Part shown: positions 2,971-25,462 of the stretch, piece by piece | Position numbering within the stretch: position 1 is the stretch's first letter | How the letters are laid out: every line of letters starts with the position of its first letter | From: an uncultured Candidatus Saccharibacteria bacterium | GTDB taxonomy: Bacteria > Patescibacteriota > Saccharimonadia > Saccharimonadales > JAGQNJ01 | Direction of reading: 5' to 3' | Assembly: GCA_964491925.1 (NCBI GenBank) | Contig: CAZBGZ010000003.1 | Location: 22,234 to 86,233 of the forward strand | Length of the DNA stretch: 64,000 nucleotides | Notes under the pieces: model-generated | What the model saw: only the letters and a program-made list of their open reading frames with translations | What the model was told of the DNA's origin: nothing | Database searches by the model: none | Program-made: the position numbers and the translations under genes

Positions 2971-5127
2971 GTGAACGACCTATTTGTTGGACTGAATGAC
3001 GAGCAAGCACGAGCGGTAAAAACTGTTGAAGGCCCATTGCTGATTTTGGCCGGGGCAGGTAGTGGAAAAACAAAAACCCTGACCCATCGTATCGCTCATA
3101 TTATAGATAGCAAACTGGCGACCCCATACAATATTTTGGCTGTAACCTTCACGAACAAGGCCGCGGGCGAAATGCGCCAACGCGTAGCTGAACTACTAGG
3201 CTTCGATTCTAATAATCGAAATTTTATGCCGTATATGGGGACCTTCCACAGTATCTGTGTGCGTTTGCTGCGCCAAGACGGTGACTTCGCCGAGATACCC
3301 AAGAACTTTGTTATTTTTGACGAACTAGACCGAACAAGTGTTATAAAGAAAATCAGCAAACAACTATCAATAGACGAAAAAGCTTTCCCGGCCAGATCTC
3401 TTGGGGGACTTATTAGTAGTGCAAAAAACGAACTGATAACCCCTAGCGCCTACGCTTCTATGGCTAACAGCCCGGCTCAGACTCACGCATCTAGAGTATT
3501 CCCACTTTATGAAAAAGCATTAAAAGATGCTGGCGCACTAGACTTTGATGATCTGATTGCAAAAGCTGTAAAGATGTTAGAGAAAAACCAAGAACTGCGA
3601 AAAAAATGGCAACAGCAATTTTCATACGTCATGATTGACGAGTACCAGGATACTAACGCTGCTCAGTACAAACTGATAAAATTACTAACCAACGAAAAAA
3701 ATAACATTGCAGTAGTCGGCGACGACTGGCAAAGCATATATTCTTGGCGTGGAGCAGATTTTCGGAATATTCTAAATTTTGAAAAAGATTATCCTGGAGT
3801 GACGGTTATCAAACTAGAACAAAACTATCGCAGCACCAAGTCAATTTTGGATGCCGCGCATACCGTAATTACAAAAAACCAACAACGCTCGGATAAAAAG
3901 CTCTGGACTGCAGCAGGGGAAGGTATGCCGGTTCAGGTTTTGCAGGCCAGTAGCGAGAGGTCTGAAGCTGAATCAATTGTGCGTAGAATAAGGAATACAG
4001 TGGACGCCAAGATCAGTGAGTATAAAGACTTCGCTGTTTTGTATCGTACCAACGCCCAAAGCCGATCGATTGAAGAAGTTTTTATTCATTATTCAATACC
4101 TTATCGCATAGTTGGTGGAGTCCGGTTCTACGATCGCAAAGAGATAAAAGACATCATGGCGTATTTGCGTCTAATGTATCAACCCCAGGATCTGAGTAGT
4201 TTTGATAGGATTGTTAATGTTCCATCCAGAGGCATAGGTGCAAAATCGTTACTAACATTTAACGATTGGCGAGAAGCATCGGGCATGACACTACAGGGTG
4301 CCATGCAACAAATCAATGACTGTACAGGCCTGACGCCGAAAGCAAAGTCAGCATTCTCGTCACTTGGTGATATGCTTGAATCCCTAAGAATCGTTATGTC
4401 TGACGAGAATGTTAGCAATGTTATAAACTCGGTTGTTAATCGTTTGGATTATCTTAACTACCTAGATGATGGGACCCCACAAGGAGAATCACGACAAGAA
4501 AACGTACGCGAACTGCTCAGCATGGCATTGCATTATCAAGATTTGGGCATGGACGGATTTTTAGAGGAAGTAGCACTGCTTAGCGATGTCGAAACAGGCA
4601 AACAGACCGGAGACAGTGTTACATTGATGACGCTTCACGGCGCAAAAGGACTAGAATTTCCAGTGGTATTTATGGTGGGTATGGAGGAAACTATCTTTCC
4701 TCATTCTCGTGCTTTATATGATAGTCAAGAAATGGAAGAGGAGCGCCGGCTATGTTATGTCGGCATGACCAGAGCCCGAGAAGAGCTATACATGCTATAC
4801 GCTACTGGCAGAATGTTGTACGGGGCCCCACAGCACAACCCACCCAGTCGCTTCATTAGTGATATTGCAGGGGACTTGATGCGCGAACAAAGCGCAGGAT
4901 TATCTTATGATTACAATAACCAGCCAGCCAGACCGCCACAACCAAAGATGGATTCGACTGCCCCTCGCTATGTACCGGATTTAGAGGAAGGCGATGGCGT
5001 AAAGCACCAATTGTTTGGAGTCGGCACGATAGTTGAGATGAACGGGGATATAGCTACTATCTACTTCAAAGGCAAAGGAACCAAGCAGCTAGATATCAGC
5101 ATTGCGCCACTGGAGAAGCTGGAATGA
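2971..5127 (+). CDS. pcrA: ATP-dependent DNA helicase PcrA/UvrD (SF1)
   Basis: 718 aa with Walker A AGAGSGKT, DEYQDT, QNYRST, VLYRTNAQSR and TLHGAKGLEFPVVF motifs. Confidence 0.9.
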   Translation: MNDLFVGLNDEQARAVKTVEGPLLILAGAGSGKTKTLTHRIAHIIDSKLATPYNILAVTFTNKAAGEMRQRVAELLGFDSNNRNFMPYMGTFHSICVRLLRQDGDFAEIPKNFVIFDELDRTSVIKKISKQLSIDEKAFPARSLGGLISSAKNELITPSAYASMANSPAQTHASRVFPLYEKALKDAGALDFDDLIAKAVKMLEKNQELRKKWQQQFSYVMIDEYQDTNAAQYKLIKLLTNEKNNIAVVGDDWQSIYSWRGADFRNILNFEKDYPGVTVIKLEQNYRSTKSILDAAHTVITKNQQRSDKKLWTAAGEGMPVQVLQASSERSEAESIVRRIRNTVDAKISEYKDFAVLYRTNAQSRSIEEVFIHYSIPYRIVGGVRFYDRKEIKDIMAYLRLMYQPQDLSSFDRIVNVPSRGIGAKSLLTFNDWREASGMTLQGAMQQINDCTGLTPKAKSAFSSLGDMLESLRIVMSDENVSNVINSVVNRLDYLNYLDDGTPQGESRQENVRELLSMALHYQDLGMDGFLEEVALLSDVETGKQTGDSVTLMTLHGAKGLEFPVVFMVGMEETIFPHSRALYDSQEMEEERRLCYVGMTRAREELYMLYATGRMLYGAPQHNPPSRFISDIAGDLMREQSAGLSYDYNNQPARPPQPKMDSTAPRYVPDLEEGDGVKHQLFGVGTIVEMNGDIATIYFKGKGTKQLDISIAPLEKLE

Positions 5128-5696: not shown

Positions 5697-6899
5697 ATGA
5701 GTAAAAACAACAATTCGAGCCGTCATAAACTGCTGAGACTAAAAAGCCATCCTTTTGTTGTTCCTGTAATAACTTTGGTGCTACTTTTTTTCGTTACGAT
5801 TGTGGCATTCGTTGGTTTTAATGCTACGACTATTGGTCCCGGAGATTCCAGAGTTGTTCAGCTTTTTGTTGATGGTGAATCGCAAACCCTGCCAACTAGA
5901 GCAAAAACAGTCGGGGATTTGCTAAAAAGACTCGACATTAAGATAAACGAGGGTGACGTTGTTGAACCTAAAGCCAATGCTCAAATTTTAGAAGATAATT
6001 TTACGGTTAATGTATATAGGGCCAGACCAGTCACGATAATAGATGGCAAGAAAAAAATAACAACTCTTTCGGCTTCGCAATCGTCTGAGGGCGTTGCCCG
6101 AAGTGTGGGTATAAAATTATTCCCAGAAGATATAGTAAAGGTTTCTACGCCCGATAATTTGATAGAAGAGGGAGTGGTGGCGGAAAAGTTTGTAATCGAC
6201 CGCTCCGTTCCAGTCAAACTGGTGCTATTTGGAAAATCATATGATGTTAGGACGCATGCGAAAACTGTTGGTGACCTTATTGTAGAGAAACAACTTAATC
6301 CGAACGAAATTACGGTATTCCCAGCCACAAATAAAAAATTAAGGCAGAACGACGTCGTTTTTGTGACTTCGCCTGGCAGGGACATAGTAATTAAAGAAGA
6401 GTCCATACCAAATAGAGAAGAAACAATCGAAGATCCAGATATGCCGCTAGGTGAATCGAAAATAAAAGAAGCCGGAAAACCTGGTAAAAAAGTCGTAATT
6501 TACGAAATTGATAAAAAGACAAAGAAGAAAAAAGCTTTACAAACAGTTATTGCGGCAAAACCGGTAAACAAAATAATTGCTAAAGGTTCAAAAATCGAGG
6601 CAGTAAAGTTAACTGGTAGTAAGGCAGATTGGATGCAAGCGGCGGGGATAGATCCTTCGCAGTATCAATATGTTGATTATATTATTGGGCGCGAGTCCGG
6701 ATGGAACCCGGCCAGTGTTAGTGCTAACCGATGCATTGGGCTTGGTCAAAAATGTAACGCCGGCAGTCTAATCGCAGCTTGCCCATCATGGCAAACTGAT
6801 CCAGTATGTCAGCTTAATCATTTCAGCGGTTACGCCAACGGGCGTTACGGGAGTTGGCAGGGGGCTTGGCAGTTCTGGAGCGTCAACCACTGGTGGTAA
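5697..6899 (+). CDS. DUF348/G5 domain cell-wall-associated protein (YabE-like) with C-terminal Cys/Trp-rich muramidase-like module
   Basis: 400 aa with an N-terminal TM helix. It has repeated AKTVGDLL...L modules typical of DUF348 and a G5-like segment (IKEAGKPGKKVVIYE). The C-terminus is YIIGRESGWNPASVSANRCIGLGQ. Confidence 0.7.
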   Translation: MSKNNNSSRHKLLRLKSHPFVVPVITLVLLFFVTIVAFVGFNATTIGPGDSRVVQLFVDGESQTLPTRAKTVGDLLKRLDIKINEGDVVEPKANAQILEDNFTVNVYRARPVTIIDGKKKITTLSASQSSEGVARSVGIKLFPEDIVKVSTPDNLIEEGVVAEKFVIDRSVPVKLVLFGKSYDVRTHAKTVGDLIVEKQLNPNEITVFPATNKKLRQNDVVFVTSPGRDIVIKEESIPNREETIEDPDMPLGESKIKEAGKPGKKVVIYEIDKKTKKKKALQTVIAAKPVNKIIAKGSKIEAVKLTGSKADWMQAAGIDPSQYQYVDYIIGRESGWNPASVSANRCIGLGQKCNAGSLIAACPSWQTDPVCQLNHFSGYANGRYGSWQGAWQFWSVNHWW

Positions 6900-7031: not shown

Positions 7032-7541
7032 ATGTCGCGTAGTTATTTAGTTCCGGGTTCTAATGAGGTGGCTGCCGATGTTATGGTTGCGGTGGTTATT
7101 GGCCCAGGGCAGTATTTAATGAGTGATCTAGCTACCAAATTTGGCATTCTACACTCAACAGTAAGTCGTGAAACAAAGCGATTGGCAGGCGAGGGGTGGA
7201 TCGGGAACTCAGATAGGCAAACCCAGGATCTAGCGTATAAACCACTAGTTCCACTTCCAGGTTTTTGGAGGGCATACAATCAGGCAGTGAATGCCGCCCA
7301 CAATGTCGGACCACAACTAGTGTCTGTTTTTGAGGATTCTATTGATGAACGATATGAAATGGAGCAGTTAGAACCGTCAACTTATGATTTTTACAGAGCA
7401 CAAGCGATATATTTAGGGGGTGCAGCAGTTTTGGGTGAGGAATTTGATCTAAACGTTAACACATCAGGTAATTGGTTCGCAGGGGTTCCTGGATGGCGCG
7501 CTCTAATTGATATCCAAGTTTCGCAGATTCCTGCTTCATAA
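7032..7541 (+). CDS. hypothetical protein, possible winged-helix DNA-binding N-terminus
   Basis: 169 aa with an AGGAG SD at 7021-7025. The segment LMSDLATKFGILHSTVSRETKRLAGEGWI looks like an HTH. Confidence 0.5.
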   Translation: MSRSYLVPGSNEVAADVMVAVVIGPGQYLMSDLATKFGILHSTVSRETKRLAGEGWIGNSDRQTQDLAYKPLVPLPGFWRAYNQAVNAAHNVGPQLVSVFEDSIDERYEMEQLEPSTYDFYRAQAIYLGGAAVLGEEFDLNVNTSGNWFAGVPGWRALIDIQVSQIPAS

Positions 7542-7565
7542 GAATTTTTGTTAAGCTGTTGATAT

Positions 7566-7631
7566 ATGGGCGAAACTATACCAAAGAAATCACTAGGCCA
7601 ACACTGGCTCCATGATGACATTAATGAATGA
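7566..7631 (+). pseudogene. 21-codon remnant of an rsmA/ksgA N-terminus
   Basis: ATG..TGA translates to MGETIPKKSLGQHWLHDDINE*. The 12 residues KKSLGQHWLHDD are identical to residues 5-16 of the intact RsmA at 15269. The DNA differs at most synonymous positions. Confidence 0.6.
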
Positions 7632-7658
7632 GCTGTTAAAAAAGTAAATATAATCGTC

Positions 7659-8492
7659 TTAGAGTATGATCAAGATTAGTCCAGCGACGATAAGGATCCC
7701 AGTTAAAATTTTTTGCAGTAAAGCTTTCTCCTCAAAGTATCGTTGTCCGAAGACTACTGACCAAAACATCGCAGTCGTTCGTTTTAATACTGTAATTATT
7801 GAAGTAGGAGCGAAGTAAAATGCAAAGCTAATCATTACAGTCTCCATCGCAGAGGCTATTGATTGCAAACCAGTAACGGATTTGACTAAAAGTTTTAAAT
7901 CGATCGGTTTATTCTTTACAATTGAAGCGATAAAAAAGTATACAACTACTATTAAAGTAATAATAAATTGTTCTGCAGCTACACTGTTGAACTTTGTAAT
8001 ATCATACTTGAATAATGATAGAGTGATTGAAGCCATCATCGCACCAACGATTACCACCCAAGCTCCTTTTTTAGATTTTGGATTTCGAAAAAATAACAAT
8101 AATAGACCGCAGAACATAGCCGTAACCCCGATTATTTGGGTCAAACTCAGAGAATTACCCAAAGCAATATCGATACTTAGAACTAAAGGTATGGTTAATA
8201 ATCGTAGATAGGCAAACGTGCTACGCTCTGCTTTGATAATCCCAACAACCATTATATGAGAAAGGATAATTTCGAGTATGACTCGAGGTATAAAAGTCGG
8301 TAATGAGGCAGTGTTAAAAGTAAAATCTGCACCAAATCCAATTGTTATTAAAAAAAATACTGACACCCAAAAGGCGTTTAAAAACCCTAATGAATATATA
8401 TTTTCACGAGCTTTTTGAACTTGCATTTTGCCGATAGATTCAGAAATCTCTCCAAACAGTGAACCCAACAAGATTAATAGTCCTGCAAACAT
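7659..8492 (-). CDS. DMT/EamA-like multi-pass membrane transporter
   Basis: 277 aa, about 10 hydrophobic helices, internally duplicated architecture. The family call is tentative. Confidence 0.6.
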   Translation of the reverse strand: MFAGLLILLGSLFGEISESIGKMQVQKARENIYSLGFLNAFWVSVFFLITIGFGADFTFNTASLPTFIPRVILEIILSHIMVVGIIKAERSTFAYLRLLTIPLVLSIDIALGNSLSLTQIIGVTAMFCGLLLLFFRNPKSKKGAWVVIVGAMMASITLSLFKYDITKFNSVAAEQFIITLIVVVYFFIASIVKNKPIDLKLLVKSVTGLQSIASAMETVMISFAFYFAPTSIITVLKRTTAMFWSVVFGQRYFEEKALLQKILTGILIVAGLILIIL

Positions 8493-8607
8493 ACCCTCAA
8501 TTAAAACATAAAAATAAGGTATTTGTGTTTCAGCTTTTTGTGTATTTATGTTTGATTATTTATACGGGGGGTTATAATAAATCCTAAATAATAAGCGTGA
8601 GGGTTTT

Positions 8608-10503
8608 ATGAAAGTTTATTTTTCTAGGCGGTCGTATATACCATATTTGCTAGCACTACTAGTAGTAGCTTTATGTATGTTCGCCGTATTTCCAACAAAG
8701 GCTTTTGCTGCTACCACATACACCGTTAATTCAATAGGTGATGACCCAGATGCTACTCCTGGTGACTCAGTCTGTGAAACCGCTACACCAGACGAATGCA
8801 CACTACGGGCTGCCATACAAGAAGTAAATGCCGGCAGTGGTGGTGACACCATCAACTTCAACATCTCTGGCACCGGCGTGCATACACTTACTCCAGCCAG
8901 TGCTTACGACACTATTACCCAAAGTGTAACTATAAATGGCTACTCACAACCTGGGTCAGCTGTAAACACAGCTGTAGCCCCAGCACCACTCAATGGTACT
9001 TTGACGATTGAGATTGATGGTACGAATGCGGGGGGTGTAGATGGGTTGGGTATTAACGCTAATAATGTCACAATTCAAGGCCTTGTTGTTAATAGATTTA
9101 ATCAGAATGGTATTGTAAGTTCGTCTGATAGCGATACGGTTATTAGTGGCAATTACATTGGTACCGATACTATGGGAACTTCTGATTTAGGAAATCAAAA
9201 TAATGGGATACGAGTAGAAAGACATGCTACGATTGGTGGTACCGCAGCTGCTTCGAGAAACTTAATTGCAGGCAACAACAACCGTGGAATTTATGGTGCT
9301 AGTGGAACGAATGTCATTCAGGGCAACTACGTTGGCCTTGCAGCTGATGGAATTACCAGGCTCAAAAATAGTGGCAGGGGGGTAGAAGCTACGGGCGGAA
9401 ACAATACTATTGGGGGGACTTATACAGGAGCTATGAATGTTATATCGGGCAATGGCGATACCGGATTGATTATAGGTGATGGCGACGGTGATACTGTAAG
9501 AGGTAACTATATTGGATTAGATTATACCGGCATATCTTTACTTGGGAATGATGGACCCGGTATCTTTCTTATAGGTGGTACAAATTCTATAATCGGTGGC
9601 ACTTCTACAGCTGCTCGGAATTTTATTGCTGGTAATGCGATTGCCCAAGTAGCTGTATATGCAACATCTGGCGCAGTTGTGCAGGGTAATTATATTGGCT
9701 CTGATAAAGATGGAAATAGCGTCAGCAACCCTAATGGCAGTTATGGTGTAGCGGTTTATAATAGCAACGATAACAACTTAATTGGTGGCACGGGCGCTGG
9801 CGAAGGTAATAAAATAGCCTTTAATAAAGCTAATGGAGTTGTGATCGCTAACTTACCCGGCTTTGGCGGCAATGCACCACTTAACACCTCTATAATAGGC
9901 AACGATATCGAACAAAACGCACTAAGCGGCATTCGTTTATGTACTGATGATAATGCCGACTTTGTCTGTGACACCCCCGAGCCTTATTCTAACGATGCCG
10001 GTGACCCAGACGAAGGGCCTAATATGTATATCAACTTCCCAGTAATCAACTCTGCCAACAAAGGTAGTGGCCAAGTAACTGTTAATTACGATTTAGATAT
10101 TAACCCTGCAGAGGTTGGTGCGACCGGCTATAGTGTAGATTTCTATGCGAATAGCACCAATGCTCGTGAAGGCGCCATCTATTTAGGCTCAGACACTGTA
10201 GCCGGTTCAGTTACTGGCCAATCGGCTACTCTTACTCTGCCAGGCTCTGTACCAGCCGACTATTATGTAACAGCTGTAACCACCATGACCGATGCCTCTG
10301 TTGACGGCTTTGGGCACAGCTCAGAGTTCTCAGCCCCAGTACTAGCTGTTGTTGGATCAGCTGGTAGTACTATCTCAACCACAACCGACTCCTTAGCCAA
10401 CACCGGTGATAACACCCATTTGATTGAGGTTATGGCGTCTATGTTCTTAGTTACGGGGTTAGTTGGTAGTGTGTTCTTACTCAACAATGGGAAGATGGTC
10501 TAG
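8608..10503 (+). CDS. secreted parallel beta-helix repeat surface protein with CSLREA-like N-domain and LAxTG sorting signal
   Basis: Signal peptide ending AFA/ATTYTV. CTLRAAIQEVNA motif. Many GNYIG/IxGN beta-helix repeats. C-terminal LANTG followed by a hydrophobic helix. GAGGG SD upstream of the ATG. Confidence 0.75.
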   Translation: MKVYFSRRSYIPYLLALLVVALCMFAVFPTKAFAATTYTVNSIGDDPDATPGDSVCETATPDECTLRAAIQEVNAGSGGDTINFNISGTGVHTLTPASAYDTITQSVTINGYSQPGSAVNTAVAPAPLNGTLTIEIDGTNAGGVDGLGINANNVTIQGLVVNRFNQNGIVSSSDSDTVISGNYIGTDTMGTSDLGNQNNGIRVERHATIGGTAAASRNLIAGNNNRGIYGASGTNVIQGNYVGLAADGITRLKNSGRGVEATGGNNTIGGTYTGAMNVISGNGDTGLIIGDGDGDTVRGNYIGLDYTGISLLGNDGPGIFLIGGTNSIIGGTSTAARNFIAGNAIAQVAVYATSGAVVQGNYIGSDKDGNSVSNPNGSYGVAVYNSNDNNLIGGTGAGEGNKIAFNKANGVVIANLPGFGGNAPLNTSIIGNDIEQNALSGIRLCTDDNADFVCDTPEPYSNDAGDPDEGPNMYINFPVINSANKGSGQVTVNYDLDINPAEVGATGYSVDFYANSTNAREGAIYLGSDTVAGSVTGQSATLTLPGSVPADYYVTAVTTMTDASVDGFGHSSEFSAPVLAVVGSAGSTISTTTDSLANTGDNTHLIEVMASMFLVTGLVGSVFLLNNGKMV

Positions 10504-10582
10504 CCAACAAAGGCTACAACAAGCTATATTTGACAGGGTTGTTTTAAATGATATAATCCAAAATATTAGTTTTTGAACGAAC

Positions 10583-11242
10583 ATGATCGGAGCAGACATT
10601 AAAACTTTCTTTATCCGGGCTAGTTTAGTCTTAGCAACTCTTGCACTGAGTATTGCTTTTATCCAGCCTATTTATGCTTTTACTCCGATCATGACAGATG
10701 ACGTTATGGGCGGGAATCAAAAGCCCTTCGAATCCTCCACTGAATCTACCAATTTAATTCGTTGGAAGCCATGCGGTACAATTGAATACGTCATCGACGT
10801 GACTGATGCACCAATTGGTTGGGTGCATGACATCCATGATGCTTTTAGAGCAGCCTCCGTGGCTACCGGCATACCTGTGCGCTATGCTGGGCGTTGGCCA
10901 CACGGACAGTCGCATAGCAGTCGTGACCCTGTGCTCGTCTATTATAAATACGATAAAGGGTTCCCTCAGCATAACGCAATAGCCTACACTCAGATGGATA
11001 AAGATTTAAGTGGACATTGGATAATTGGTGGATATATTATTGTTGATCCTGAGATTGCACAATTTAATCATCGATACCACAGAAGAACAATTTTCCATGA
11101 AGTTGGTCATGCATTTGGTTTGCCTCATCCAGGCTCGAGATACTACGGTGTTAGTGTTATGGGATATGCGAACGCACCTTACAAGCCCTTTGATCTTTGG
11201 ATGTTTAAATTTGTGGGGCGTCAGCCTATCGAATGTAGATAA
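10583..11242 (+). CDS. secreted zinc metalloprotease (metzincin, matrixin-like)
   Basis: 219 aa with an N-terminal signal/TM and the HEVGHAFGLPH (HExxHxxGxxH) zinc-binding motif. Confidence 0.75.
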   Translation: MIGADIKTFFIRASLVLATLALSIAFIQPIYAFTPIMTDDVMGGNQKPFESSTESTNLIRWKPCGTIEYVIDVTDAPIGWVHDIHDAFRAASVATGIPVRYAGRWPHGQSHSSRDPVLVYYKYDKGFPQHNAIAYTQMDKDLSGHWIIGGYIIVDPEIAQFNHRYHRRTIFHEVGHAFGLPHPGSRYYGVSVMGYANAPYKPFDLWMFKFVGRQPIECR

Positions 11243-11334
11243 TATAATTTCGTTAAACAAATACACTTGTGTTTGAGCTTATGCTATAATGTCCCCAGTT
11301 AAGCAGGTGAGCGGATACGCTTTATTATGGGAAA

Positions 11335-14300
11335 ATGAAAAACTTACGGAAAATCATAGCCTTAAACATTGTTTTTATTGCTGTTTTTGGCGTCTTTTTA
11401 CTGTTGGGCTCTCACAACGCCTTTGCAGCAACTTACACAGTTACGAATACCGATGATTCGGGGGCTGGATCGCTGCGCCAAGCTGTAGATGATGCTAACA
11501 ATAACGTCGGTCATGACCAGATAGATTTTAATATTGGTGCCGGCGTGCAAACCATAACCTTAGGGTCAACTATAAATGTTTCAGACCCTGTGAAGATTAA
11601 CGGTCTTTCAGCATCTGGCTCTGCGTGCAATGGCACGAGCTCAACGCTGAAAGTAGTTATAGAAAATAATGTCATAGGGTTAGGAGTCGGCGCAGCAGGC
11701 ACCGAAATAAACGGATTGGTTTTTGGCCAAGGCAACGCACTAATTGCGGATAGTGCAGATAACGCAATAATTCGGTGTAACTTTTTCGGCACGAACGCTG
11801 CTGGGACTGCAGCCGTAAGTAGCGGTAGTCATGGTGGGGTGTATACATACGGAGTCAGTGGAACAACTATCGGTGGTGATGCCGTGACTGATATGAATTT
11901 ATTTGGAAAGTACGCCATACACATCGAAGGCACCTCTCAGACTATAAAAAACAACATTGTAGGCACCGATATTACCGGCACTATGGCTCTCGGTATAGAT
12001 GACTACGGAGCTATTTTGCTCACAAATGTGTCGAATACAGTTGTCAGTAACAACCTGGTATCTGGAGCTACCGGTAGTGGAATACATTTTTATTATGGTA
12101 CAGACAGCGGCAATACAATTAAGGGAAATAAAATTGGTACAAATTATGCTGGTACTGCTGCGCTCCCAAATTCGGGTGCTGGTATCTCATCATGGGCTGC
12201 ACACAGTAATGAAATGATCGGGGGTCCAAACGAGGCAGATAGAAACATAATATCCGGCAATAGCGACTACGCTATTAAAGGCCTAAGCATAGGCGTAACG
12301 ATTCAAAACAACTTTATTGGTACAAATGCCGCAGGCGATGCGGCAATACCCAATGCCGTTGGTGTAGGAATTGATTGTGGGGATGCAGACTGTAGTAGTG
12401 CTCACATAATAGACAACGTCATTAGTGGTAATGGTAATAACGGGCTGTATCTTGGCGGAATCGGAAACCATCTTGGGGCGGTTGTTCAGGGCAATCACAT
12501 CGGCACCGACATAACTAACACTTTAGATCTCGGTAATGAACTAGATGGAATATTTGTAGGTACTGGAGGCGATAGTGGACGATTTCTCATTGGTGGTACT
12601 GGCGCAAACGAAGGTAACACCATTAGGTTTAATGGAGGTCATGGTATTGGTGTGAATTATTTCTCTGGCGGAAAAGCTAGTTTGCTAGGAAACAGTATAT
12701 CGGACAACGGTTTACTTGGCATAAGCCTAGGTAGTTTTGGAAGCCTTGAGAATGGTCTCAACCATACTGTCAACGACTCGGGGGATGGTGATACTGGACC
12801 AAATGATTTGCTTAACTATCCGATTGTTACGCAGGCTACAGATGTTTCTGGCCATACCAACCTTAATTTCGACCTTGACGTCCCTGCGGGTGATTACCGC
12901 ATAGAATTCTTTAGTAACACCGAGGCTGATCCTAGCGGTTATGGCGAAGGAGAGACATATTTGGGATACGAGGATATAACCAGTACAGGTACAGGTTCAC
13001 AAAGTTTTACCACTAGCGTGAGTGGCACAGGGCATACTCATTTAGCAGCCACAGCCACTTTAATAGATGGCGACAGCCCAAGTGGTTTCGGCCCAACTAG
13101 CGAATTTGGCAAGTTTGAACCAGTAACTGATCTAGAGGTTGCTAGTGACGACGGCGTAACAACAGTTCATTCAGGAGATAGCAATACTTACACTTTTACT
13201 GTAACTAACAATGGACCATCAGCTATTGATCACTTTAGGCTCAATAATGGCGATTTTATGGATGAACCGACATTTGAAGTTATTGCTGAAGGCTCTACTG
13301 CCTCGGATACCGGTAGCTTTAGCGGAAATGCCTGGGAAAAGGATTGGGACGGTACACTAGAGACCGGGCAAACCTTAGTTTTTCAAATCCACGGCGTAAT
13401 AGGTGGTGATAACTACGGCGATATACATTCTAGTCGTGCGTGCGTAGCTAACCTGGAGTTTGAAGGTAATAACACATCGGATTCTAACGAAGAAAACAAC
13501 TGTGGAACCGATGATGATACTAACTTTCCTGCTCCAGTCGCGGATGGAGAAATTACAAAAACATTGAATTCACCAGGCACAATTACAAACGGTCAGCAAG
13601 CTACCTATAAACTTACATATACTAATCATGGGCCAGATGTTGGTGGAGTAAACCCATTTTATATATATGACCTTTTGCCTCCAGGCTTAACGTTTGCTTC
13701 CGCGACTGACGGCGGAATACATCCTTTGGGCGATGACGGTATATACGTACCTTGTGATAGTAACCCCGAACAATCTTGCTGGATTATTGGTTCAGCCGGT
13801 TCTTCCCCTTGGGCTTCTCATCCTGGCTCGCTGATATATGCTGTATATATAGGCGGGCAAACCATTGGCCAAACCATTGGTGTAGGAGAGTCAGTAAGTC
13901 TAAACATCACGGTTGATGTTGCAGACCAAGAAGACGGTGCAACTGTTATAAACTGGGCTCTGTTGTTTGCCCCTAGCGACAGTGACCCAGAAGCAGGTGC
14001 TATTGAAGATTCATATGAGACCGAAGGTGGACCATTTGACCTTGTTAACAACGATATCACCCATCATACTTATAACCCTAATGTTCCTCCAGATGGCGAC
14101 CTAGATGGAGTAACTAATGCGGTAGAAAGCGCAGGACCAAATAATGGTGACGCCAATGACGATGGTATAACTGATGCCGACCAGCCAAATGTGGCGAGTT
14201 ATGTAGACAGTGTTACTGGGCAATATGTTGTAGTCGAATCTAGTTGCCCTGTTGTCTCAGGTGCGGGCGTGGTGGCTGAGTCTAGTGACGACCCAGATGC

Positions 14301-14784
14301 TGATTACAGCTATCCCGCAGGGCTCGTTAATTTCACCACAAACTGTAGTACGCCAGGCTCCGAAGCAACTATTACTCAGTATTATTATGGTTCATTTGAT
14401 CCAACCAAATTGGCACTGCGCAAATGGAACCCTAACACGCACACGTATACTTCACTAGAAGATGTAGACTTATCCAGCGTAACAGTTGGTGGTCACAGCG
14501 CCATCAAAGCCGTCTACCAAATCACCGATGGCAGCAGTCTCGACCAAGACGGTATAGCCAATGGGACAATTGTTGACCTGGTTGGGCCAGCATTATCGGC
14601 TGACGGGAGCTCTAGCGGTTCATCAAACGAATCAAGGAGCACTAGCTCAGCAAAAAATTCAAGTGACGACCTTGCCGATACAGGTGATAACACGGGGGTT
14701 GTGATAACTGCCGGTGTGGTCTTGCTTCTGGCGGGTGTAACAAGTTTGACCTTATGGGTTAAAACTTCTTCTCCAAGAAAGTAG
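11335..14784 (+). CDS. large cell-wall-anchored surface protein (beta-helix repeats, DUF11-like repeats, LAxTG signal)
   Basis: 1149 aa. Signal peptide ...AFA/ATYTVT and a GSLRQAVDDANNN motif paralogous to the 8608 protein. NNxIGTN beta-helix repeats. TVTNNGPS and TYTNHGPD repeat-domain motifs. C-terminal LADTG, a hydrophobic helix, then KTSSPRK. Confidence 0.75.
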   Translation: MKNLRKIIALNIVFIAVFGVFLLLGSHNAFAATYTVTNTDDSGAGSLRQAVDDANNNVGHDQIDFNIGAGVQTITLGSTINVSDPVKINGLSASGSACNGTSSTLKVVIENNVIGLGVGAAGTEINGLVFGQGNALIADSADNAIIRCNFFGTNAAGTAAVSSGSHGGVYTYGVSGTTIGGDAVTDMNLFGKYAIHIEGTSQTIKNNIVGTDITGTMALGIDDYGAILLTNVSNTVVSNNLVSGATGSGIHFYYGTDSGNTIKGNKIGTNYAGTAALPNSGAGISSWAAHSNEMIGGPNEADRNIISGNSDYAIKGLSIGVTIQNNFIGTNAAGDAAIPNAVGVGIDCGDADCSSAHIIDNVISGNGNNGLYLGGIGNHLGAVVQGNHIGTDITNTLDLGNELDGIFVGTGGDSGRFLIGGTGANEGNTIRFNGGHGIGVNYFSGGKASLLGNSISDNGLLGISLGSFGSLENGLNHTVNDSGDGDTGPNDLLNYPIVTQATDVSGHTNLNFDLDVPAGDYRIEFFSNTEADPSGYGEGETYLGYEDITSTGTGSQSFTTSVSGTGHTHLAATATLIDGDSPSGFGPTSEFGKFEPVTDLEVASDDGVTTVHSGDSNTYTFTVTNNGPSAIDHFRLNNGDFMDEPTFEVIAEGSTASDTGSFSGNAWEKDWDGTLETGQTLVFQIHGVIGGDNYGDIHSSRACVANLEFEGNNTSDSNEENNCGTDDDTNFPAPVADGEITKTLNSPGTITNGQQATYKLTYTNHGPDVGGVNPFYIYDLLPPGLTFASATDGGIHPLGDDGIYVPCDSNPEQSCWIIGSAGSSPWASHPGSLIYAVYIGGQTIGQTIGVGESVSLNITVDVADQEDGATVINWALLFAPSDSDPEAGAIEDSYETEGGPFDLVNNDITHHTYNPNVPPDGDLDGVTNAVESAGPNNGDANDDGITDADQPNVASYVDSVTGQYVVVESSCPVVSGAGVVAESSDDPDADYSYPAGLVNFTTNCSTPGSEATITQYYYGSFDPTKLALRKWNPNTHTYTSLEDVDLSSVTVGGHSAIKAVYQITDGSSLDQDGIANGTIVDLVGPALSADGSSSGSSNESRSTSSAKNSSDDLADTGDNTGVVITAGVVLLLAGVTSLTLWVKTSSPRK

Positions 14785-14790
14785 CTACTA

Positions 14791-15231
14791 TTATTTTGCC
14801 GGTGCTTTGAATTTTGGCGCAGCGAGCACCGTTATATGCCGTGCGTTGTTTTTGTTGGCTTCTTCGGGGTAAATAATAACCAGCAGGCCCTTTTTAACGG
14901 TGTCTGTGTTAGTCTTTTTGCTATTAAGGTATATCTCGGTGTCTTTTGTTATAGCAAATGTACTCGACTTCTTGCTTTTTATAGTAGTGACCGTGATAGA
15001 TGTTTTAGAAATGTCACTAACTTTACCAATAAAACTTGGGTTCGTAATTTGGCCAGATGTGTGGGCTTTAGCCCAAGCTTGGTCTTGCTTTTTTTGCACA
15101 TGACTACCAAGCTTATAACCAGTCGAGACTAGTGCTAACGAAATAACAATAACACTGAGTATAATGACCTTTTTTGATTTTTTTACAGATTTTTTTACTA
15201 TTAAATGTTCCACTAACCTAGTATACCTCAA
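14791..15231 (-). CDS. small N-terminally membrane-anchored protein, unknown function
   Basis: 146-aa ORF with a K-rich N-terminus followed by one TM helix. A TATACT box 6 nt before the internal GTG at 15213 suggests the real start may be there. Confidence 0.5.
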   Translation of the reverse strand: MRYTRLVEHLIVKKSVKKSKKVIILSVIVISLALVSTGYKLGSHVQKKQDQAWAKAHTSGQITNPSFIGKVSDISKTSITVTTIKSKKSSTFAITKDTEIYLNSKKTNTDTVKKGLLVIIYPEEANKNNARHITVLAAPKFKAPAK

Positions 15232-15251
15232 CTTGGGATTACAAAATTGTT

Positions 15252-15260
15252 TGCTACACT
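15252..15260 (+). promoter_or_regulatory. extended -10 promoter (TGcTACACT) of rsmA
   Basis: Lies 8 nt upstream of ATG 15269 with no SD sequence. Confidence 0.45.
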
Positions 15261-15268
15261 GATCTAAT

Positions 15269-16054
15269 ATGACTGGAGTTAAAAAGAGTTTGGGTCAGCA
15301 TTGGCTGCATGATGATAACGCACTTAGGGCTATGGTAGAGTCATCTTTAGTTAAAAAAACAGATAACATTCTCGAAATTGGACCAGGGCTTGGGACTTTA
15401 ACGGATGAACTCTTGAAAACTGGCGCAAAAGTGACTGCCTTGGAGTTTGACCATGAACTAGTACTGAAACTGCAGAAAAAATATTCAGGAAATGCCCAAA
15501 TTGACGTCAGAGAGGGTGACATTCGCAGGTTTGATTTTTCGTCTATGGCCCCCGGCTACAAAATAGTAGCGAACATTCCATACTATTTAACCGCTAACTT
15601 GCTGCGATCGTTGATCGATACAGACAACAAGCCGGTCATTGCATCGTTACTAGTGCAAAAAGAAGTTGCCGTGAGAATCGCCGCAAGACCTGGCCAGCTG
15701 TCTTTTATATCTGTTGCAACCCAAGTTTTTTATGATGCAATTCTCAGCGATTTAGTCCCGGCCCATTTGTTTGACCCACCACCAAAGGTGGATTCTCAGA
15801 TACTGATATTAGTGAAACGAGATCAGCCGTTGTTCAATAACCTAGATACAGCGGTATTTTTCAGGCTATTAAAGGCAGGATTTGATCAAAAAAGGAAAAA
15901 GATAAAAACCAGCCTAGCTGGTGGGCTGGGAGTAGGCAAGGGCGAAGTCACGAAACTGTTAGCCACTGCCAACATTCACAGCGATCTGCGCCCGCAAGAA
16001 CTAACCCTAGAACAATGGCACAAACTGTATTCTGTCTACCTGGCTTCCCTTTAG
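15269..16054 (+). CDS. rsmA: 16S rRNA (adenine1518/1519-N6)-dimethyltransferase
   Basis: 261 aa with SLGQHWLHD, the SAM motif LEIGPGLGTLT and NIPYYLT. Confidence 0.9.
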   Translation: MTGVKKSLGQHWLHDDNALRAMVESSLVKKTDNILEIGPGLGTLTDELLKTGAKVTALEFDHELVLKLQKKYSGNAQIDVREGDIRRFDFSSMAPGYKIVANIPYYLTANLLRSLIDTDNKPVIASLLVQKEVAVRIAARPGQLSFISVATQVFYDAILSDLVPAHLFDPPPKVDSQILILVKRDQPLFNNLDTAVFFRLLKAGFDQKRKKIKTSLAGGLGVGKGEVTKLLATANIHSDLRPQELTLEQWHKLYSVYLASL

Positions 16055-16189
16055 TCCCCCTACCCTACTGTTGTAAAAATAAAACACCTTCAAATAATTT
16101 ACCGTGTTTTCCGCTAATAGAATTTTCCATAATACTCCCCTATTTTTGATTTTGACACTTCCCCACTTTCATTTCCTAAAATAGCGCAA

Positions 16190-16219: not shown

Positions 16220-16262
16220 AAAAAAAGCACCAGTAAAACTGATGCATTTTTGGTGGAGCACC
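16220..16262 (-). repeat. duplicate of the tmRNA 3' end (GCTCCACCA) plus terminator
   Basis: Minus strand reads GGTGCTCCACCAAAAATGCATCAGTTTTACTGGTGCTTTTTTT. Compare the tmRNA end, GCTCCACCAAAAACGCATCTCAAAAGAGGTGCTTTTTT. The hairpin stems differ by compensatory changes. Confidence 0.55.
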
Positions 16263-16392
16263 TAGAAAAAAGTTCACCCCTCATCTTTGCAGAAATAGAA
16301 AGATGGCGTTATTTACTCTGGGACGAGTATATTGAGTTCAAGAGGGGACAAGAACCACGAAAGAAGTTACTTATCCCCTGAAGGTATACGCC

Positions 16393-17037
16393 CTAGGCAG
16401 CTATTTGATTAATGACTGTCTCAGCACCATCTGCATATACCAATAGTCGTTTCCGTGATGTGGAGCCTACGCCAACTACTCCATGGGGTTTTGTAGCAAA
16501 ACCAAACCCTTTATCTTCGTTTGGTGGCAGAACCAGACCATCGATAGCTACGAAGTCGGCACAACCGCTTATGACGATTATTTCATTGGAGTCAATTTTG
16601 GGCCTGCGACCATTTATTGTGTAGTGTAAATCTCCCTGTACATCCCAGTTAAATATCACTGCATGACCATCTAAAAAGTCTCTGTGCTCGTCAAGCACCA
16701 TGTCTTGCCTGGCTTCATGTCGCAATGAAACTTGTATCTTATTTGCGTCTGGACTATTTATACGATTAAAAAGCGATATGCGACCCATAGTGCGTGCCAG
16801 TGGACCAGCAACAGGATGTTGCTCCACTATGTCAGTAGAGCATTTGCCATTAGGAGGAACTGGTAACTTATCCATCAAGGCTAGAGCTTCAGGAGTCAGC
16901 ACGTCAGATATGTGAGCATAGTGGCCCTCGACAGGAGCTTTTGTGTATTCATGAACCCACAACATGTCCAAGTCTATAGGGTGCTGCAAATATGGTTCTA
17001 AAGCAGGGTCTGGATGAGCAAACTCTCTGATTAACAT
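16393..17037 (-). CDS. hypothetical protein (weak HxD...H pattern, possibly cupin/2OG-oxygenase-like)
   Basis: 214 aa. Its own TGgTATAAT box (17045-17053) sits 7 nt before the ATG. There is no recognisable family; DEHRDF...KPHGV is only suggestive. Confidence 0.55.
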   Translation of the reverse strand: MLIREFAHPDPALEPYLQHPIDLDMLWVHEYTKAPVEGHYAHISDVLTPEALALMDKLPVPPNGKCSTDIVEQHPVAGPLARTMGRISLFNRINSPDANKIQVSLRHEARQDMVLDEHRDFLDGHAVIFNWDVQGDLHYTINGRRPKIDSNEIIVISGCADFVAIDGLVLPPNEDKGFGFATKPHGVVGVGSTSRKRLLVYADGAETVINQIAA

Positions 17038-17107
17038 AATGTTTATTATACCATAAGAGATTTAATCTGTCGATAAGCTATAGTGTCCTACTTTAGGTTT
17101 CTGTGAA

Positions 17108-17138
17108 ACAAAAAAGCACCTCTTTTGAGATGCGTTTT
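17108..17138 (-). terminator. intrinsic terminator of ssrA
   Basis: Minus strand GCATCTC-AAAA-GAGGTGC followed by TTTTTT, immediately after the encoded CCA. Confidence 0.7.
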
Positions 17139-17546
17139 TGGTGGAGCTGCCGGTTACTGCCACCGGGTCCGCGGGATTATCTTTGTTAGTCGTCTACAGG
17201 TATATTCTGCTTAGTTGTCTTAGAAACCTCGTCTTTAAACAGACAAAATAACGAAGAATCGCAATCCTAAAGTCTTAGTCCAACTTACGGATCGTAAGCT
17301 GGAAGCAACCCTGGAATATAGCGCGTCGCATCACTACCAAGATATCGTGATAGACACGGCTTAAATAATTAAACTTAAGCGGTTGTGGCTACAGGTGCCT
17401 CGAAAGCAGTTTTTAGGCTGTTTACGAAAGCAACTGATAGACCACGTAATTTAGAATTTGCATCTAAAAAAGTTTACCTATAACGCTGATAAGCGACCTG
17501 CTGATCTAACTGATAAAGTCCTACGTCGAGCTTGAAATTCAGCCCC
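17139..17546 (-). ncRNA. ssrA: tmRNA (ssrA), one-piece, CCA encoded
   Basis: The 5' end GGGGCTGAATTTCAAGCTCGACGTAGGAC matches the tmRNA 5' consensus (GGGGCUGA...UCGACG). The 3' end CAGCTCCACCA pairs with it, giving the G3:U alanine identity pair. The putative tag ORF at 17461-17375, after TTTTTTAGAT, reads ANSKLRGLSVAFVNSLKTAFEAPVATTA*. Confidence 0.8.
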
Positions 17547-17603
17547 GTATCTGAGCTAGCGAAAATACACTAATACTCATAAGCTACCTCTGTAACTAAC
17601 TAT

Positions 17604-17612: not shown

Positions 17613-17700
17613 CTTATGCCATAAAATATGAACCTTATTACTTTTTTGAGGTAAATTATCCATAACCATATATAAAGCCCAGAAAGTCCTTGAGCCCATC

Positions 17701-17709
17701 TGCTACAAT
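17701..17709 (+). promoter_or_regulatory. extended -10 promoter (TGcTACAAT)
   Basis: Lies 9 nt upstream of ATG 17719. Confidence 0.45.
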
Positions 17710-17718
17710 GAAGACTCG

Positions 17719-18372
17719 ATGGATAACCACCCTACAAATCCTAAACTGAATAGAATTGCTTGGGCTCTCGGCATCTTTGTCTCATTGGTGGCAGTTCTTA
17801 ACTGGGGTCAGGGGATTGATTGGCAATTTTCTACAATAACAGCATATAGTCTATTCCCTCTTTTTGGATTACTAGCTTTTAGCCTGATGTGGACCCATTA
17901 TATCCTTGGTGCGATGCGGCGAAAAATGGCCGTAAACAAATCTGTTGTCAAAGACTATTTTACAATAACAGGTTGGGTTGTTCTGCTATTAATCTGTTTG
18001 CACCCAGGCCTACTTTGGTTTCAGTTATGGCGTGATGGTTTCGGCTTTCCGCCCAGCAGTTATCTGAATAATTATGTCGCGCCAACGCTAAAATGGGCAG
18101 CAATGTTAGGCACTGCGAGTTTGCTTATGTTTTTGGCATTCGAGTTCAAGCGTTGGTTTGGCAAGAAAAAATGGTGGGTTGCTATAGAATACGCTAATGT
18201 TGCTGCCATGTTTGCAATCTTGGTGCACAGCCTGAAGCTGGGCACAAATCTGCAAACCGGAGCACTAAGATTGGTATGGATTTTTTACGGCATAACATTG
18301 GTCATTTCTGTAGTTTATATTTACAGTGGTAAACATAGTGATAAAATAACGAAATTGAAAGGAAACCAATGA
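17719..18372 (+). CDS. integral membrane protein (about 6 TM helices, conserved His residues; possibly heme-b/ferric-reductase-like)
   Basis: 217 aa, hydrophobic, with His residues in several helices (MWTHYILG, CLHPGLLW, LVHSLKLG). The 4-nt overlap with the next ORF suggests an operon. Confidence 0.6.
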   Translation: MDNHPTNPKLNRIAWALGIFVSLVAVLNWGQGIDWQFSTITAYSLFPLFGLLAFSLMWTHYILGAMRRKMAVNKSVVKDYFTITGWVVLLLICLHPGLLWFQLWRDGFGFPPSSYLNNYVAPTLKWAAMLGTASLLMFLAFEFKRWFGKKKWWVAIEYANVAAMFAILVHSLKLGTNLQTGALRLVWIFYGITLVISVVYIYSGKHSDKITKLKGNQ

Positions 18373-18788
18373 AAAAAATAGTAGCAATAGTAGCCATAGT
18401 AATTTTCGTATTGATCGGCGGAGTTTTTATGTTAACTAGGGGTTCAAATGAAACGGTCGCACCAGAAACATCACCGGCCGAAAAAACTAAAGATATACCA
18501 GCAACAGGGGTTGATTCCGCAACATCAACGATTACCTATACTAATGATGGTTTTAGCCCTTCAACAATAACTGTATCTGCGGGTACGACGATTACTATAA
18601 AAAATGATTCATCTAAGAGCCTACAATTTGCATCCAACGACCACCCTACTCATACAAAAAATCCAGAACTAAACGGGTCAACAATCGACGCGGGGCAGTC
18701 ACAAACCATAACTGTCACCAAAACGGGGACGAGCGGTTATCATAATCACTTGAATCCCAGTGACACTGGTACAATTGTTGTCCAATAA
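18369..18788 (+). CDS. membrane-anchored extracytoplasmic beta-sandwich (cupredoxin-like fold) protein, no Cys ligand
   Basis: 139 aa with an N-terminal TM helix. The domain ITYTNDGFSPSTITVSAGTTITIKN...GYHNHLNPSDTGTIVV resembles cupredoxin-like domains but lacks cysteine. Confidence 0.5.
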   Translation: MKKIVAIVAIVIFVLIGGVFMLTRGSNETVAPETSPAEKTKDIPATGVDSATSTITYTNDGFSPSTITVSAGTTITIKNDSSKSLQFASNDHPTHTKNPELNGSTIDAGQSQTITVTKTGTSGYHNHLNPSDTGTIVVQ

Positions 18789-18833
18789 TCACTAGCAATA
18801 TTTTGTAACTACTAATAATGCTATAGTTATGGC

Positions 18834-19097
18834 ATGAATACCTCGGTGGAGTCTGGTTTCGCAGATCTAAATTTCGCTAACCATGAGGCTAGCTGGGGCT
18901 TGACGGGCGCAGCAGGGGCGTTAGTAGTAGACGGTATTGCTGGCGCTAAACAAATATATCATTTGCTAGCCGGGCATCCGGAACTAACGCGAGCTGATGA
19001 GGTGGCTTTTGTTGTAGCAAGCGCTGCGGTTCTGGCATGCACTGCTATTTGGTCCCATGGAGTTAATCGGGCACGCCAAGTAGTTTCTGTCAGGTAG
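18834..19097 (+). CDS. small hydrophobic hypothetical protein
   Basis: 87 aa. TGcTATAGT at 18819-18827 lies 6 nt before the ATG, which supports expression. Confidence 0.45.
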   Translation: MNTSVESGFADLNFANHEASWGLTGAAGALVVDGIAGAKQIYHLLAGHPELTRADEVAFVVASAAVLACTAIWSHGVNRARQVVSVR

Positions 19098-19110
19098 GGT
19101 ATATATGCAT

Positions 19111-19140
19111 TTGACTACTGTAGTCCGCTCGAACTACACT
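19111..19140 (+). promoter_or_regulatory. sigma70-type promoter TTGACT-N18-TACACT of the trehalase gene
   Basis: Read directly. The -10 box ends 8 nt before ATG 19149. Confidence 0.5.
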
Positions 19141-19148
19141 GTTAACAC

Positions 19149-20411: not shown

Positions 20412-20450
20412 CTGCGCGGCACATAGCATCGTTGCAAATTCCGCCACTCC

Positions 20451-20474
20451 TGAGCTGTATGCACATACAGCTCA
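20451..20474 (+). terminator. 10-bp perfect hairpin (TGAGCTGTAT-GCAC-ATACAGCTCA) downstream of the trehalase gene, no U-tract
   Basis: Read directly, 40 nt after the stop codon. Its function as a terminator is inferred. Confidence 0.35.
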
Positions 20475-20600
20475 GTCCGGTGCTCGTTTGCGCCTTGCTC
20501 TGTATCCACGCAGTTACTTATCAACGTTTGTCATCAAATACAGTCATTCGATTATAGACAAGGAATTTAATAATTTATTTAGTGTGTATACTTTTATTTA

Positions 20601-21248: not shown

Positions 21249-21268
21249 CAGTGCTGTAAACTAATAAT

Positions 21269-21583: not shown

Positions 21584-21602
21584 CTAAAAAGGTTAATTAG
21601 CC

Positions 21603-22103: not shown

Positions 22104-22348
22104 AAATTAACTTTTTAATATTCAATTTACCTCTGAATGTGTTCGACCGGACACAAATTGGGGTAAATTTGCTATGTCTAGGGCTAGGGGAAGATAGCCG
22201 TTCCATCAGCCTGACGGTGGTGATATACTGATAAATGAGATGACAAACGCATATACGATACGAACCATGCGGATGATGCCCTAGGGCAGACTACTTTTAC
22301 TTTGATTTTTATATTTAATACAATTAATAACGAATACTTGAAAGACTA

Positions 22349-23806: not shown

Positions 23807-23813
23807 AAGCCAG

Positions 23814-24602: not shown

Positions 24603-24609
24603 GAGAGAC

Positions 24610-25444: not shown

Positions 25445-25462
25445 TGAACGGATAGACCAGAG

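Follow-up and report, generated by a model that had tools for sequence, protein, structure and literature searches.

Some genomic islands integrate at one terminus of a tRNA gene, a tmRNA gene or a conserved protein-coding gene and bring a replacement gene end with them. We analysed a related arrangement in a 64,000-nucleotide (nt) stretch of DNA from an uncultured Candidatus Saccharibacteria bacterium (assembly GCA_964491925.1, contig CAZBGZ010000003.1, positions 22,234 to 86,233), hereafter the window, in whose own coordinates all positions are given. Here a 5' remnant of rsmA (ksgA), an rRNA methyltransferase gene, at 7566-7631 is separated from an intact rsmA at 15269-16054 by a block of transporter, surface-protein and protease genes (7632-15268). 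A further process that bears on such an arrangement is homology-facilitated illegitimate recombination (HFIR), in which incoming DNA is integrated by homologous crossover at one of its ends and by an illegitimate joint at the other (PMC3240628). HFIR has been described in Acinetobacter, Streptococcus pneumoniae and Pseudomonas stutzeri, at least as the primary papers are cited in PMC5361080, and a one-sided recombination logic has been proposed for orphan genes at type VI secretion system (T6SS) and Rhs loci (PMC5361080). Cultivated Saccharibacteria have been shown to be naturally competent and to integrate DNA by homologous recombination (PMC10633639).

We report that the remnant is a true rsmA 5' end. 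It is best explained as a functionless scar left by HFIR, and for scar and mechanism jointly we put the probability at about 0.6. The scar is an ordinary recombination scar; it adds an instance to a type of event that is already known and does not amount to a new system.

A short open reading frame preserves the 5' end of rsmA

The open reading frame (ORF) at 7566-7631 (+ strand) translates as MGETIPKKSLGQHWLHDDINE followed by a stop codon, and consists of 18 rsmA-derived codons (7566-7619), three junction-derived codons and the stop. The intact RsmA begins with MTGVKKSLGQHWLHDDNALRAMVE, and the 12 residues KKSLGQHWLHDD are the same in both. A preliminary description of this DNA had taken the ORF for an rsmA N-terminal remnant and had pointed out that most synonymous sites differ between the two copies; both statements hold, with 24 of 36 nt matching across the overlap (67% identity) and 9 of 12 codons differing. 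We searched the 3,370 stop-to-stop peptides from the six frames of the window with an N-terminal hidden Markov model (HMM) of 18 columns, built from 119 other RsmA homologues with the window's own protein excluded. Only two peptides stood out, the remnant with E=2.7e-13 and the intact gene with E=1.6e-9; all others were at E=1.7 or worse, so that the search proposed in that description excludes a chance match. A full-length RsmA model also recovered the remnant (E=2e-5) and found no second rsmA fragment in any frame of the window.

The shared residues KKSLGQHWLHDD are a clade consensus, present exactly in 10 of the 120 best RsmA homologues, and identity to the window's own RsmA therefore carries little information. 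The informative feature of the remnant is instead its prefix, which is MGETIP, as against MTGV in the intact RsmA. Residues 1-15 of the remnant are identical, at 15 of 15 positions, to the N-termini of two RsmA proteins from relatives, P0049 and P0050, which begin with MGETIPKKSLGQHWL and share 84-85% identity with the window's RsmA. At the DNA level the remnant differs from rsmA of L028, the relative that encodes P0049, at 14 of 54 nt (relatives are designated by L numbers). The different prefixes, the 67% DNA identity and surroundings colinear with the relative L022 bear out the earlier claim that the remnant and the intact 5' end have different histories.

The segment KKSLGQHWL in the remnant fits the N-terminal motif of the RsmA/KsgA family (PF00398), K-x-LGQ-[HN]-[FW]-L. 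The ORF stops after 21 codons and lacks the Rossmann methyltransferase domain with the S-adenosylmethionine (SAM)-binding motif E-x-G-x-G-x-G; it is thus a piece of a gene and does not count as a protein of the RsmA family. The remnant is carried by one organism only, L008 and L009 being 100% identical assemblies of it from two runs.

The remnant lies where relatives carry rsmA

In Bacillus subtilis the order of the corresponding genes is metS-yabD-yabE-rnmV-ksgA, and the preliminary description had argued from this synteny that adjacency of yabE and ksgA is likely to be ancestral. The relatives agree. The conserved left flank of the interval is a yabE-like gene at 5697-6899 (+; Pfam DUF348 2.4e-16, G5 7e-14), which ends where it had been said to end. 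Its nucleotide identity is 91% to L004 up to the stop codon, ~85% to L028 and 77% to L022, and the identity to L004 does not fall toward the 3' end (0.93 over 6774-6893). In L028, rsmA follows yabE directly with 106 bp between them, and the two genes also adjoin in L006 (RsmA 54% identity). One gene separates them in L022, where the order is PK-PGK-TIM-193aa-pcrA-nudix-yabE-ORF173-rsmA and rsmA encodes P0050, and one unrelated gene in L002 (RsmA 46% identity).

The earlier synteny argument holds for the ancestral adjacency, but it overlooked ORF169 (7032-7541, +), the key gene to the left of the remnant. ORF169 encodes a small protein in which a MarR-like winged helix is weakly indicated (its only family matches, to MarR, are sub-threshold) and is an orthologue of ORF173 in L022 (positions 9452-9970 of that locus; BLASTP, 46% identity, E 3e-53), from which it differs less at nonsynonymous (pN 0.35) than at synonymous sites (pS 0.75). 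Among 5.8 billion proteins, a word-based search recovered nothing but ORF169 and overlooked the 46%-identical homologue in L022, so that absence from this search is no evidence of an orphan gene. The 259-aa gene between yabE and rsmA in L002 was considered as a further homologue and rejected, as it shows no similarity.

In a DNA alignment, the 3' end of ORF169, a 24-nt spacer and the remnant are colinear with the ORF173-rsmA junction of L022. The spacer (7542-7565, +) matches its L022 counterpart at 21 of 24 nt and represents the retained proximal upstream region of the old rsmA; beyond CATGAT (about 7617-7620), homology to L022 rsmA is lost. Intergenic regions of L014, L004, L028 and L006 contain no decayed traces of ORF169 or rsmA. 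The order yabE-(ORF169)-rsmA, carried by L028, L006, L022 and the distant L002, is likely to be ancestral. This colinearity indicates that the remnant is the start of rsmA in its ancestral place and that 7632-15268 is extra DNA relative to these four relatives.

The comparison with B. subtilis goes only so far. As there, yabE and rsmA/ksgA are adjacent or one small gene apart in L028, L006, L022 and L002. Unlike rnmV, however, ORF169 and ORF173 lack a Toprim/RNase M5 signature and have only the sub-threshold MarR-like matches. The genes metG and tatD are nearby, as had been stated, at 7-9 kb downstream; they thus lie downstream of rsmA in the window rather than upstream of yabE.

The upstream region of the remnant contains TG-T-TAAGCT at 7549-7557, 8 nt ahead of the ATG. 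The same layout, TGnTA(A/C)(A/G)CT followed by 8 nt and ATG, precedes the intact rsmA (15252-15260) and rsmA of L004, L022, L024, L028 and L031, and the outgroup L014 has a 1-nt variant of the motif, TCTGATACAAT. No Shine-Dalgarno sequence was found at these motif-bearing rsmA genes. The copy upstream of the remnant may be an extended -10 element, and the recurring motif, together with the missing Shine-Dalgarno sequence, points to an extended -10 promoter and to an rsmA mRNA that is leaderless or nearly so. A consensus promoter scan did not call the TGnTAnnCT motif.

An abrupt joint on the left and a mosaic gene on the right

The left boundary of the block is abrupt. Firm homology to the DMT gene of L014 begins at 7669, weak similarity of the DMT 3' flank to L014 and L016 extends to about 7634-7647, and no homology crosses 7618-7668. 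With these homology limits on either side, the illegitimate joint, which connects resident rsmA codons 18-21 to the 3' flank of the DMT gene, appears to lie within 7618-7668 and most likely within 7618-7634. Searches for flanking direct or inverted repeats and for attachment (att) sites gave chance-level matches only. The sole core common to the remnant and the intact rsmA is the 8-nt CATGATGA, located where homology of the remnant ends. Integrase, transposase and resolvase domains were found neither in the five main ORFs of the block, nor in ORF214 farther downstream, nor in the flanks (Pfam, NCBIfam and PHROGs, the last limited to ORF169, ORF146 and ORF214), in line with the earlier remark that no recombinase gene is present.

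Composition, which the preliminary description had suggested comparing with the flanks, gave a divided answer. GC content is the same in the block (0.429) as outside it (0.428). The tetranucleotide distance of the block, in contrast, is an outlier at 0.0172, against a mean of 0.0095 (standard deviation 0.0008, maximum 0.0119) across 82 equally long segments; this signal sits on repetitive Gly/Asn/Thr-rich surface-protein genes and is therefore no proof of foreign origin.

The intact rsmA at the right boundary (15269-16054, +) encodes a complete protein (Pfam RrnaAD 4.4e-50) with the SAM motif EIGPGLG. Its sequence appears to be a mosaic, with a 5' part resembling L004 up to about 15652 and a 3' part resembling L028 and L031. 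Over 15322-15500, sliding identity is 0.82-0.88 to L004, as against 0.64-0.71 to L022, L028 and L024; over 15920-16072 it is 0.85-0.90 to L028 and L031, as against 0.76-0.78 to L004. A maximum chi-square test with L004 and L028, which by its design cannot tell which of the three sequences is recombinant, placed a breakpoint near 15652, with none of 2000 permutations as extreme (p<0.0005). Informative sites divide 50:13 (L004-like to L028-like) to the left of 15652 and 25:43 to the right, and other triplets agree. RsmA of L028, whose gene resembles the 3' part of the intact gene, has the same MGETIP prefix as the remnant.

Homologous exchange is not confined to rsmA. Gene by gene across 17700-27100, synonymous divergence (dS) from L005 and L024 (L025 was also compared) spans 0.2 to 2.3, and for one and the same relative neighbouring genes differ about tenfold; the gene at 18369-18788, for instance, is 93% identical in nucleotides to L024 and 66% to L005. 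This spread indicates pervasive homologous exchange among these lineages, whose genomes are strongly mosaic. We had considered the high dS of rsmA relative to L004 (1.17 versus ~0.5) as evidence of import by itself and rejected it, given the range of 0.2 to 2.3 in the downstream genes.

The scar is young

Over its first 15 codons the remnant differs from L022 by nine synonymous and no nonsynonymous changes (9.8 and about 35.2 sites, respectively), and it has seven third-position bases of its own among five other alleles that share the six-residue prefix. Its start codon and upstream motif are intact. The excess of synonymous change argues that the remnant was part of a working gene until recently, and nearly all of its separate history appears to have passed under protein-level selection within a working rsmA. 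As 35.3 nonsynonymous sites are unchanged, neutral decay of the remnant amounts to no more than about 0.085 substitutions per site (95% bound), well below the synonymous divergence of 0.44-0.55 between the window and L004 in pcrA, nudix and yabE. By this comparison the event appears young, and probably younger than the split from L004. A young event implies several independent structural changes at the locus within a shallow clade.

The interval between yabE and rsmA is occupied in different ways

Several relatives carry comparable blocks at the same place. In L014 (DMT protein 72% identical, YabE 63% identical in amino acids) the order is yabE-390 bp-DMT(-)-554aa-461aa-rsmA, with neither remnant nor ORF169. 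In L004, which is 90% identical in nucleotides from pcrA to the stop codon of yabE, yabE leads directly into a promoter of the type found before the surface-protein gene SP1 of the window. A surface protein of 473 aa, a toxin-antitoxin pair of the YafQ type and an ORF of 113 aa then precede rsmA; remnant, ORF169 and DMT gene are all missing. L001/L025, L024 and L031 have further variants just upstream of rsmA, in which neither the remnant nor ORF169 was seen. Variants in L014 and L004 that lack the remnant indicate that the block is recurrent in the clade: it appears to be a variable occupant of the yabE-rsmA interval rather than a one-off foreign island.

The unit of DMT permease and surface proteins also occurs elsewhere. 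In L010, L011, L016, L019 and L020 the permease gene lies between His_Phos_1/2-Hacid_dh/enolase and divergent surface-protein genes (the latter not reached in L020), and in L010 and L011 BipA follows the unit. The unit thus occurs in at least two genomic contexts and is not foreign to the clade. The window has no His_Phos_1, enolase or BipA genes.

Against this background the earlier insertion reading stands in part. Relative to L028, L006, L022 and L002, extra DNA is indeed joined inside rsmA codons 18-21; it is not a one-off, given the variants in L014 and L004. Relatives that share the gene order while lacking the remnant, which the preliminary description had named as counter-evidence to its claim, exist to a degree in these same two genomes, although the core of that reading is still supported.

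Three features of these loci are recorded here in their own right. In L014, the yabE-DMT intergenic region (4263-4613 of that locus) contains a long near-perfect hairpin (GTCAAGACAAACAAC...GTTGTTTGTTTGAC) in place of ORF169 and the remnant. The 473-aa surface protein of L004 (3775-5196) combines an SP1-like promoter and signal peptide with a C-terminal module like that of the second surface protein of the window, SP2, and an unrelated middle; this composition points to a shuffling of modules in these proteins, with their N- and C-terminal ends conserved. L028 carries an HNH endonuclease gene (PF13392; 2920-3396) just downstream of rsmA that is absent from the window.

Homology-facilitated illegitimate recombination as the probable origin of the scar

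We infer that HFIR after natural transformation put the block before a rebuilt rsmA, at the probability of about 0.6 given above. In this lineage rsmA would once have followed yabE and ORF169, as it does in L022. The incoming segment would have come from a related Saccharibacterium, presumably by uptake of free DNA, and would have brought in the genes for the DMT permease, both sortase-type surface proteins, the metzincin and the small membrane protein, along with the 5' part of an rsmA allele. At the right end, a homologous crossover inside rsmA near 15652 would have anchored the segment, if that breakpoint belongs to the arrival of the block, and at the left end the DMT 3' flank would have been joined illegitimately to resident rsmA at codons 18-21. 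The outcome would be a 7.6-kb addition, an intact but mosaic rsmA and an orphaned 5' start with its upstream region and first 18 codons. More generally, the yabE-rsmA interval would be a slot prone to recombination, where relatives exchange alternative surface-protein cassettes; most exchanges would be clean, and in this case one end would have been imprecise.

On this account the locus shares with HFIR a homologous anchor at the rsmA breakpoint (~15652), an opposite end joined without homology, DNA from outside beside the anchor, the lack of a recombinase or terminal repeats, and a phylum in which competence is known. It differs from the described cases in being read from a natural genome rather than an experiment, in the length of the tract (7.6 kb), and in that the DNA would come from a close relative and not a foreign species. 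HFIR joints usually show 3-10 nt of microhomology. A looser parallel is offered by the displacement arrays at T6SS effector-immunity, Rhs and contact-dependent growth inhibition (CDI) loci (PMC5361080), which likewise have a conserved anchor gene, variable cassettes and rare imprecise swaps that leave an orphan fragment. The orphan here, in contrast, is the 5' end of an rRNA methyltransferase gene rather than a toxin or immunity gene, the cargo is adhesin-like, and there is one scar and no array.

Several observations weigh against this account. The donor is unsampled, which leaves any microhomology at the joint putative. The L004-like tract of rsmA extends only from about 15245 to about 15650, and the adjoining upstream ORF146 is not L004-like, so that the mosaic could be a separate conversion patch unrelated to the arrival of the block; the three-sequence test, moreover, is silent on which sequence is recombinant. 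In its DNA the remnant is no closer to L028 (14 of 54 nt differ) than to other alleles, and a single organism carries it. Finally, yabE of the window is closest to that of L004, which bears a block and lacks ORF169, and this would fit a transfer in the other direction as well.

That reverse transfer, in which a fragment of ~0.73 kb with ORF169 and the first 54 nt of rsmA was inserted between yabE and the DMT gene of an existing island locus like that of L014, is the alternative that survives best, and we consider it unlikely. L014 does have yabE beside DMT(-), with homology to the window from the DMT 3' end, and yabE of the window is 91% identical to that of the island-bearing L004 up to the stop codon. 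An unsampled donor would also suit a remnant allele that is saturated at synonymous sites relative to all sampled alleles and an ORF169 with one known, distant homologue. Such an insertion, however, needs two joints with no or very short homology, and the 0.93 identity at the 3' end of yabE leaves it no homologous anchor; events of this kind should be far rarer than one-sided HFIR, and the mosaic of the intact rsmA would remain unexplained. Entry of the island into a yabE-ORF169-rsmA locus, rather than of an ORF169-rsmA' fragment into an island-bearing one, is the more probable direction.

Site-specific integration, with an island that targeted the rsmA 5' end and supplied a replacement end, would make the remnant attL and the intact start attR, the integrase having since been lost. 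As at gene-end-targeting islands, the insert is bordered by a displaced native end at its left and by a complete gene at its right, CATGATGA is shared exactly where homology of the remnant ends, and the tmRNA gene 1 kb downstream has a small insertion with a comparable duplication of a gene end. Yet no integrase, transposase or resolvase domain occurs in the five main ORFs of the block or in ORF214, and the shared core of only 8 nt has about a 1 in 4 chance of matching given identical amino acids; no att core is conserved. The two gene ends are just 67% identical, L004 and L014 have the island without the duplication, and the intact rsmA aligns with L004 unbroken through the supposed core. We judge this scenario improbable.

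Still harder to credit is an old insertion shared with L014, after which the remnant was kept because it is useful, be it as a translated peptide of 21 residues or as a promoter that reads antisense into the converging DMT gene. An island does occupy the same interval in the distant L014, and the start codon, upstream motif and 15 of 15 residues are intact with lineage-specific changes that are all synonymous. But no other genome keeps the remnant, L014 and L004 included; selection for an antisense promoter would not keep the amino-acid sequence, and an RsmA N-terminus without the methyltransferase fold has no plausible activity. That the remnant is a chance similarity or a recent within-genome duplication of the window's rsmA start, a thought invited by the shortness of the conserved motif, is refuted by E 2.7e-13 against an independent HMM and by copies only 67% identical in DNA, with MGETIP against MTGV as prefixes, unalignable upstream regions and surroundings colinear with L022.

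On the HFIR account, the scar narrows one recombination joint down to about 50 bases (7618-7668, with 7618-7634 the most likely part), and it illustrates how a block of surface proteins, probably for host attachment, can be added without mobile-element machinery in an ultrasmall epibiotic bacterium. Together with the mosaic genomes, a yabE-rsmA interval that acts as a variable slot for surface-protein cassettes would help to explain strain-level variation in host range, and the interval suggests itself as an insert-tolerant site for genetic work on Saccharibacteria. A bolder version is a tentative possibility at most: the interval might be a dedicated exchange slot for cassettes of sortase-anchored adhesins, proteases and transporters acquired by transformation, the remnant might be the first natural HFIR footprint in the Candidate Phyla Radiation (CPR)/Patescibacteria, and it may fire a leaderless transcript antisense to the DMT gene.

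Genes of the block

The gene labels of the preliminary description, namely a DMT transporter, two paralogous LAxTG surface proteins, a metzincin and a small membrane protein, proved apt, with the DMT assignment below the Pfam threshold. The DMT/EamA-like permease gene (7659-8492, -; 277 aa, 41 homologues) is divergently paired with the surface-protein genes. Its product matches EamA with E 0.024 and TIGR03340 with E 3.5e-6 (26.9 bits against a cut-off of 288), all below threshold; its homologues are annotated as DMT, several have a precomputed PF00892 match, and one has been named a DMT-like permease by the Joint Genome Institute (JGI). The closest homologues (66-72% identity) adjoin surface-protein genes wherever the contig reaches that side, L020 and short contigs ending before it. 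A segmental duplication would make the permease gene a paralogue of the one that follows the intact rsmA; we rejected this, as the two show no similarity.

SP1 (8608-10503, +) is a secreted repeat protein with 49% identity to a 582-aa protein of L010, and over the promoter and signal peptide it shares 80% identity with L004 3732-3889. Its C-terminus comprises the sorting signal LANTG, a hydrophobic stretch and NNGKMV. SP2 (11335-14784, +), a DUF11/CLIPPER surface protein of 1149 aa (Pfam DUF11 9.8e-11), ends correspondingly in LADTG, a hydrophobic stretch and KTSSPRK. It is 44% identical over its full length to the 1121-aa CLIPPER protein that adjoins the DMT gene in L011, its orthologue, and its C-terminal module is common to surface proteins upstream of rsmA in L001, L004, L005, L024 and L025. 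SP1 and SP2 are paralogues (31% identity, E 2e-39) whose N-termini are hydrophobic leaders ending in AFAAT, and both have the predicted features of sortase-anchored (LPXTG-type) sorting signals.

Between them lies a gene for a small secreted metzincin-type metalloprotease (10583-11242, +; 219 aa), in which HEVGHAFGLPH at residues 172-182 fits the zinc motif HExxHxxGxxH; HMM matches to serralysin and M66 are weak and below their cut-offs. The last gene of the block, ORF146 (14791-15231, -), encodes a small protein with an N-terminal membrane anchor and no family match. It occupies a variable slot just upstream of rsmA, filled in relatives by a toxin-antitoxin pair of the YafQ type, by an ORF of 113 or 39 aa, or by an unrelated one of 148 aa; the last of these (L031, -) was considered as an ORF146 homologue and rejected for lack of a match.

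Rearrangements at the neighbouring tmRNA gene

Downstream of rsmA, the window carries a tmRNA gene at 17139-17546 (-; Rfam RF00023, 64.4 bits), and a second copy of the tmRNA terminator with the last ~9 nt of the gene (TGGTGGAGC, + strand) lies at 16221-16268. The two copies of the tmRNA end bracket a segment of 846 bp that is absent from L025 and L026 and holds ORF214 (16393-17037, -). ORF214 has a strong promoter-like site (17073-17045) and no family match, and a search of viral contigs with it gave no match. The segment resembles a small insertion that entered ssrA at its 3' end and duplicated the gene end. The tmRNA segment at 17106-17549 has one orientation in the window, L025, L026, L028 and L031 and the opposite one in L004, L005, L022 and L024, at 84-100% nucleotide identity across these loci; these inversions indicate that the region just downstream of rsmA is also prone to rearrangement.

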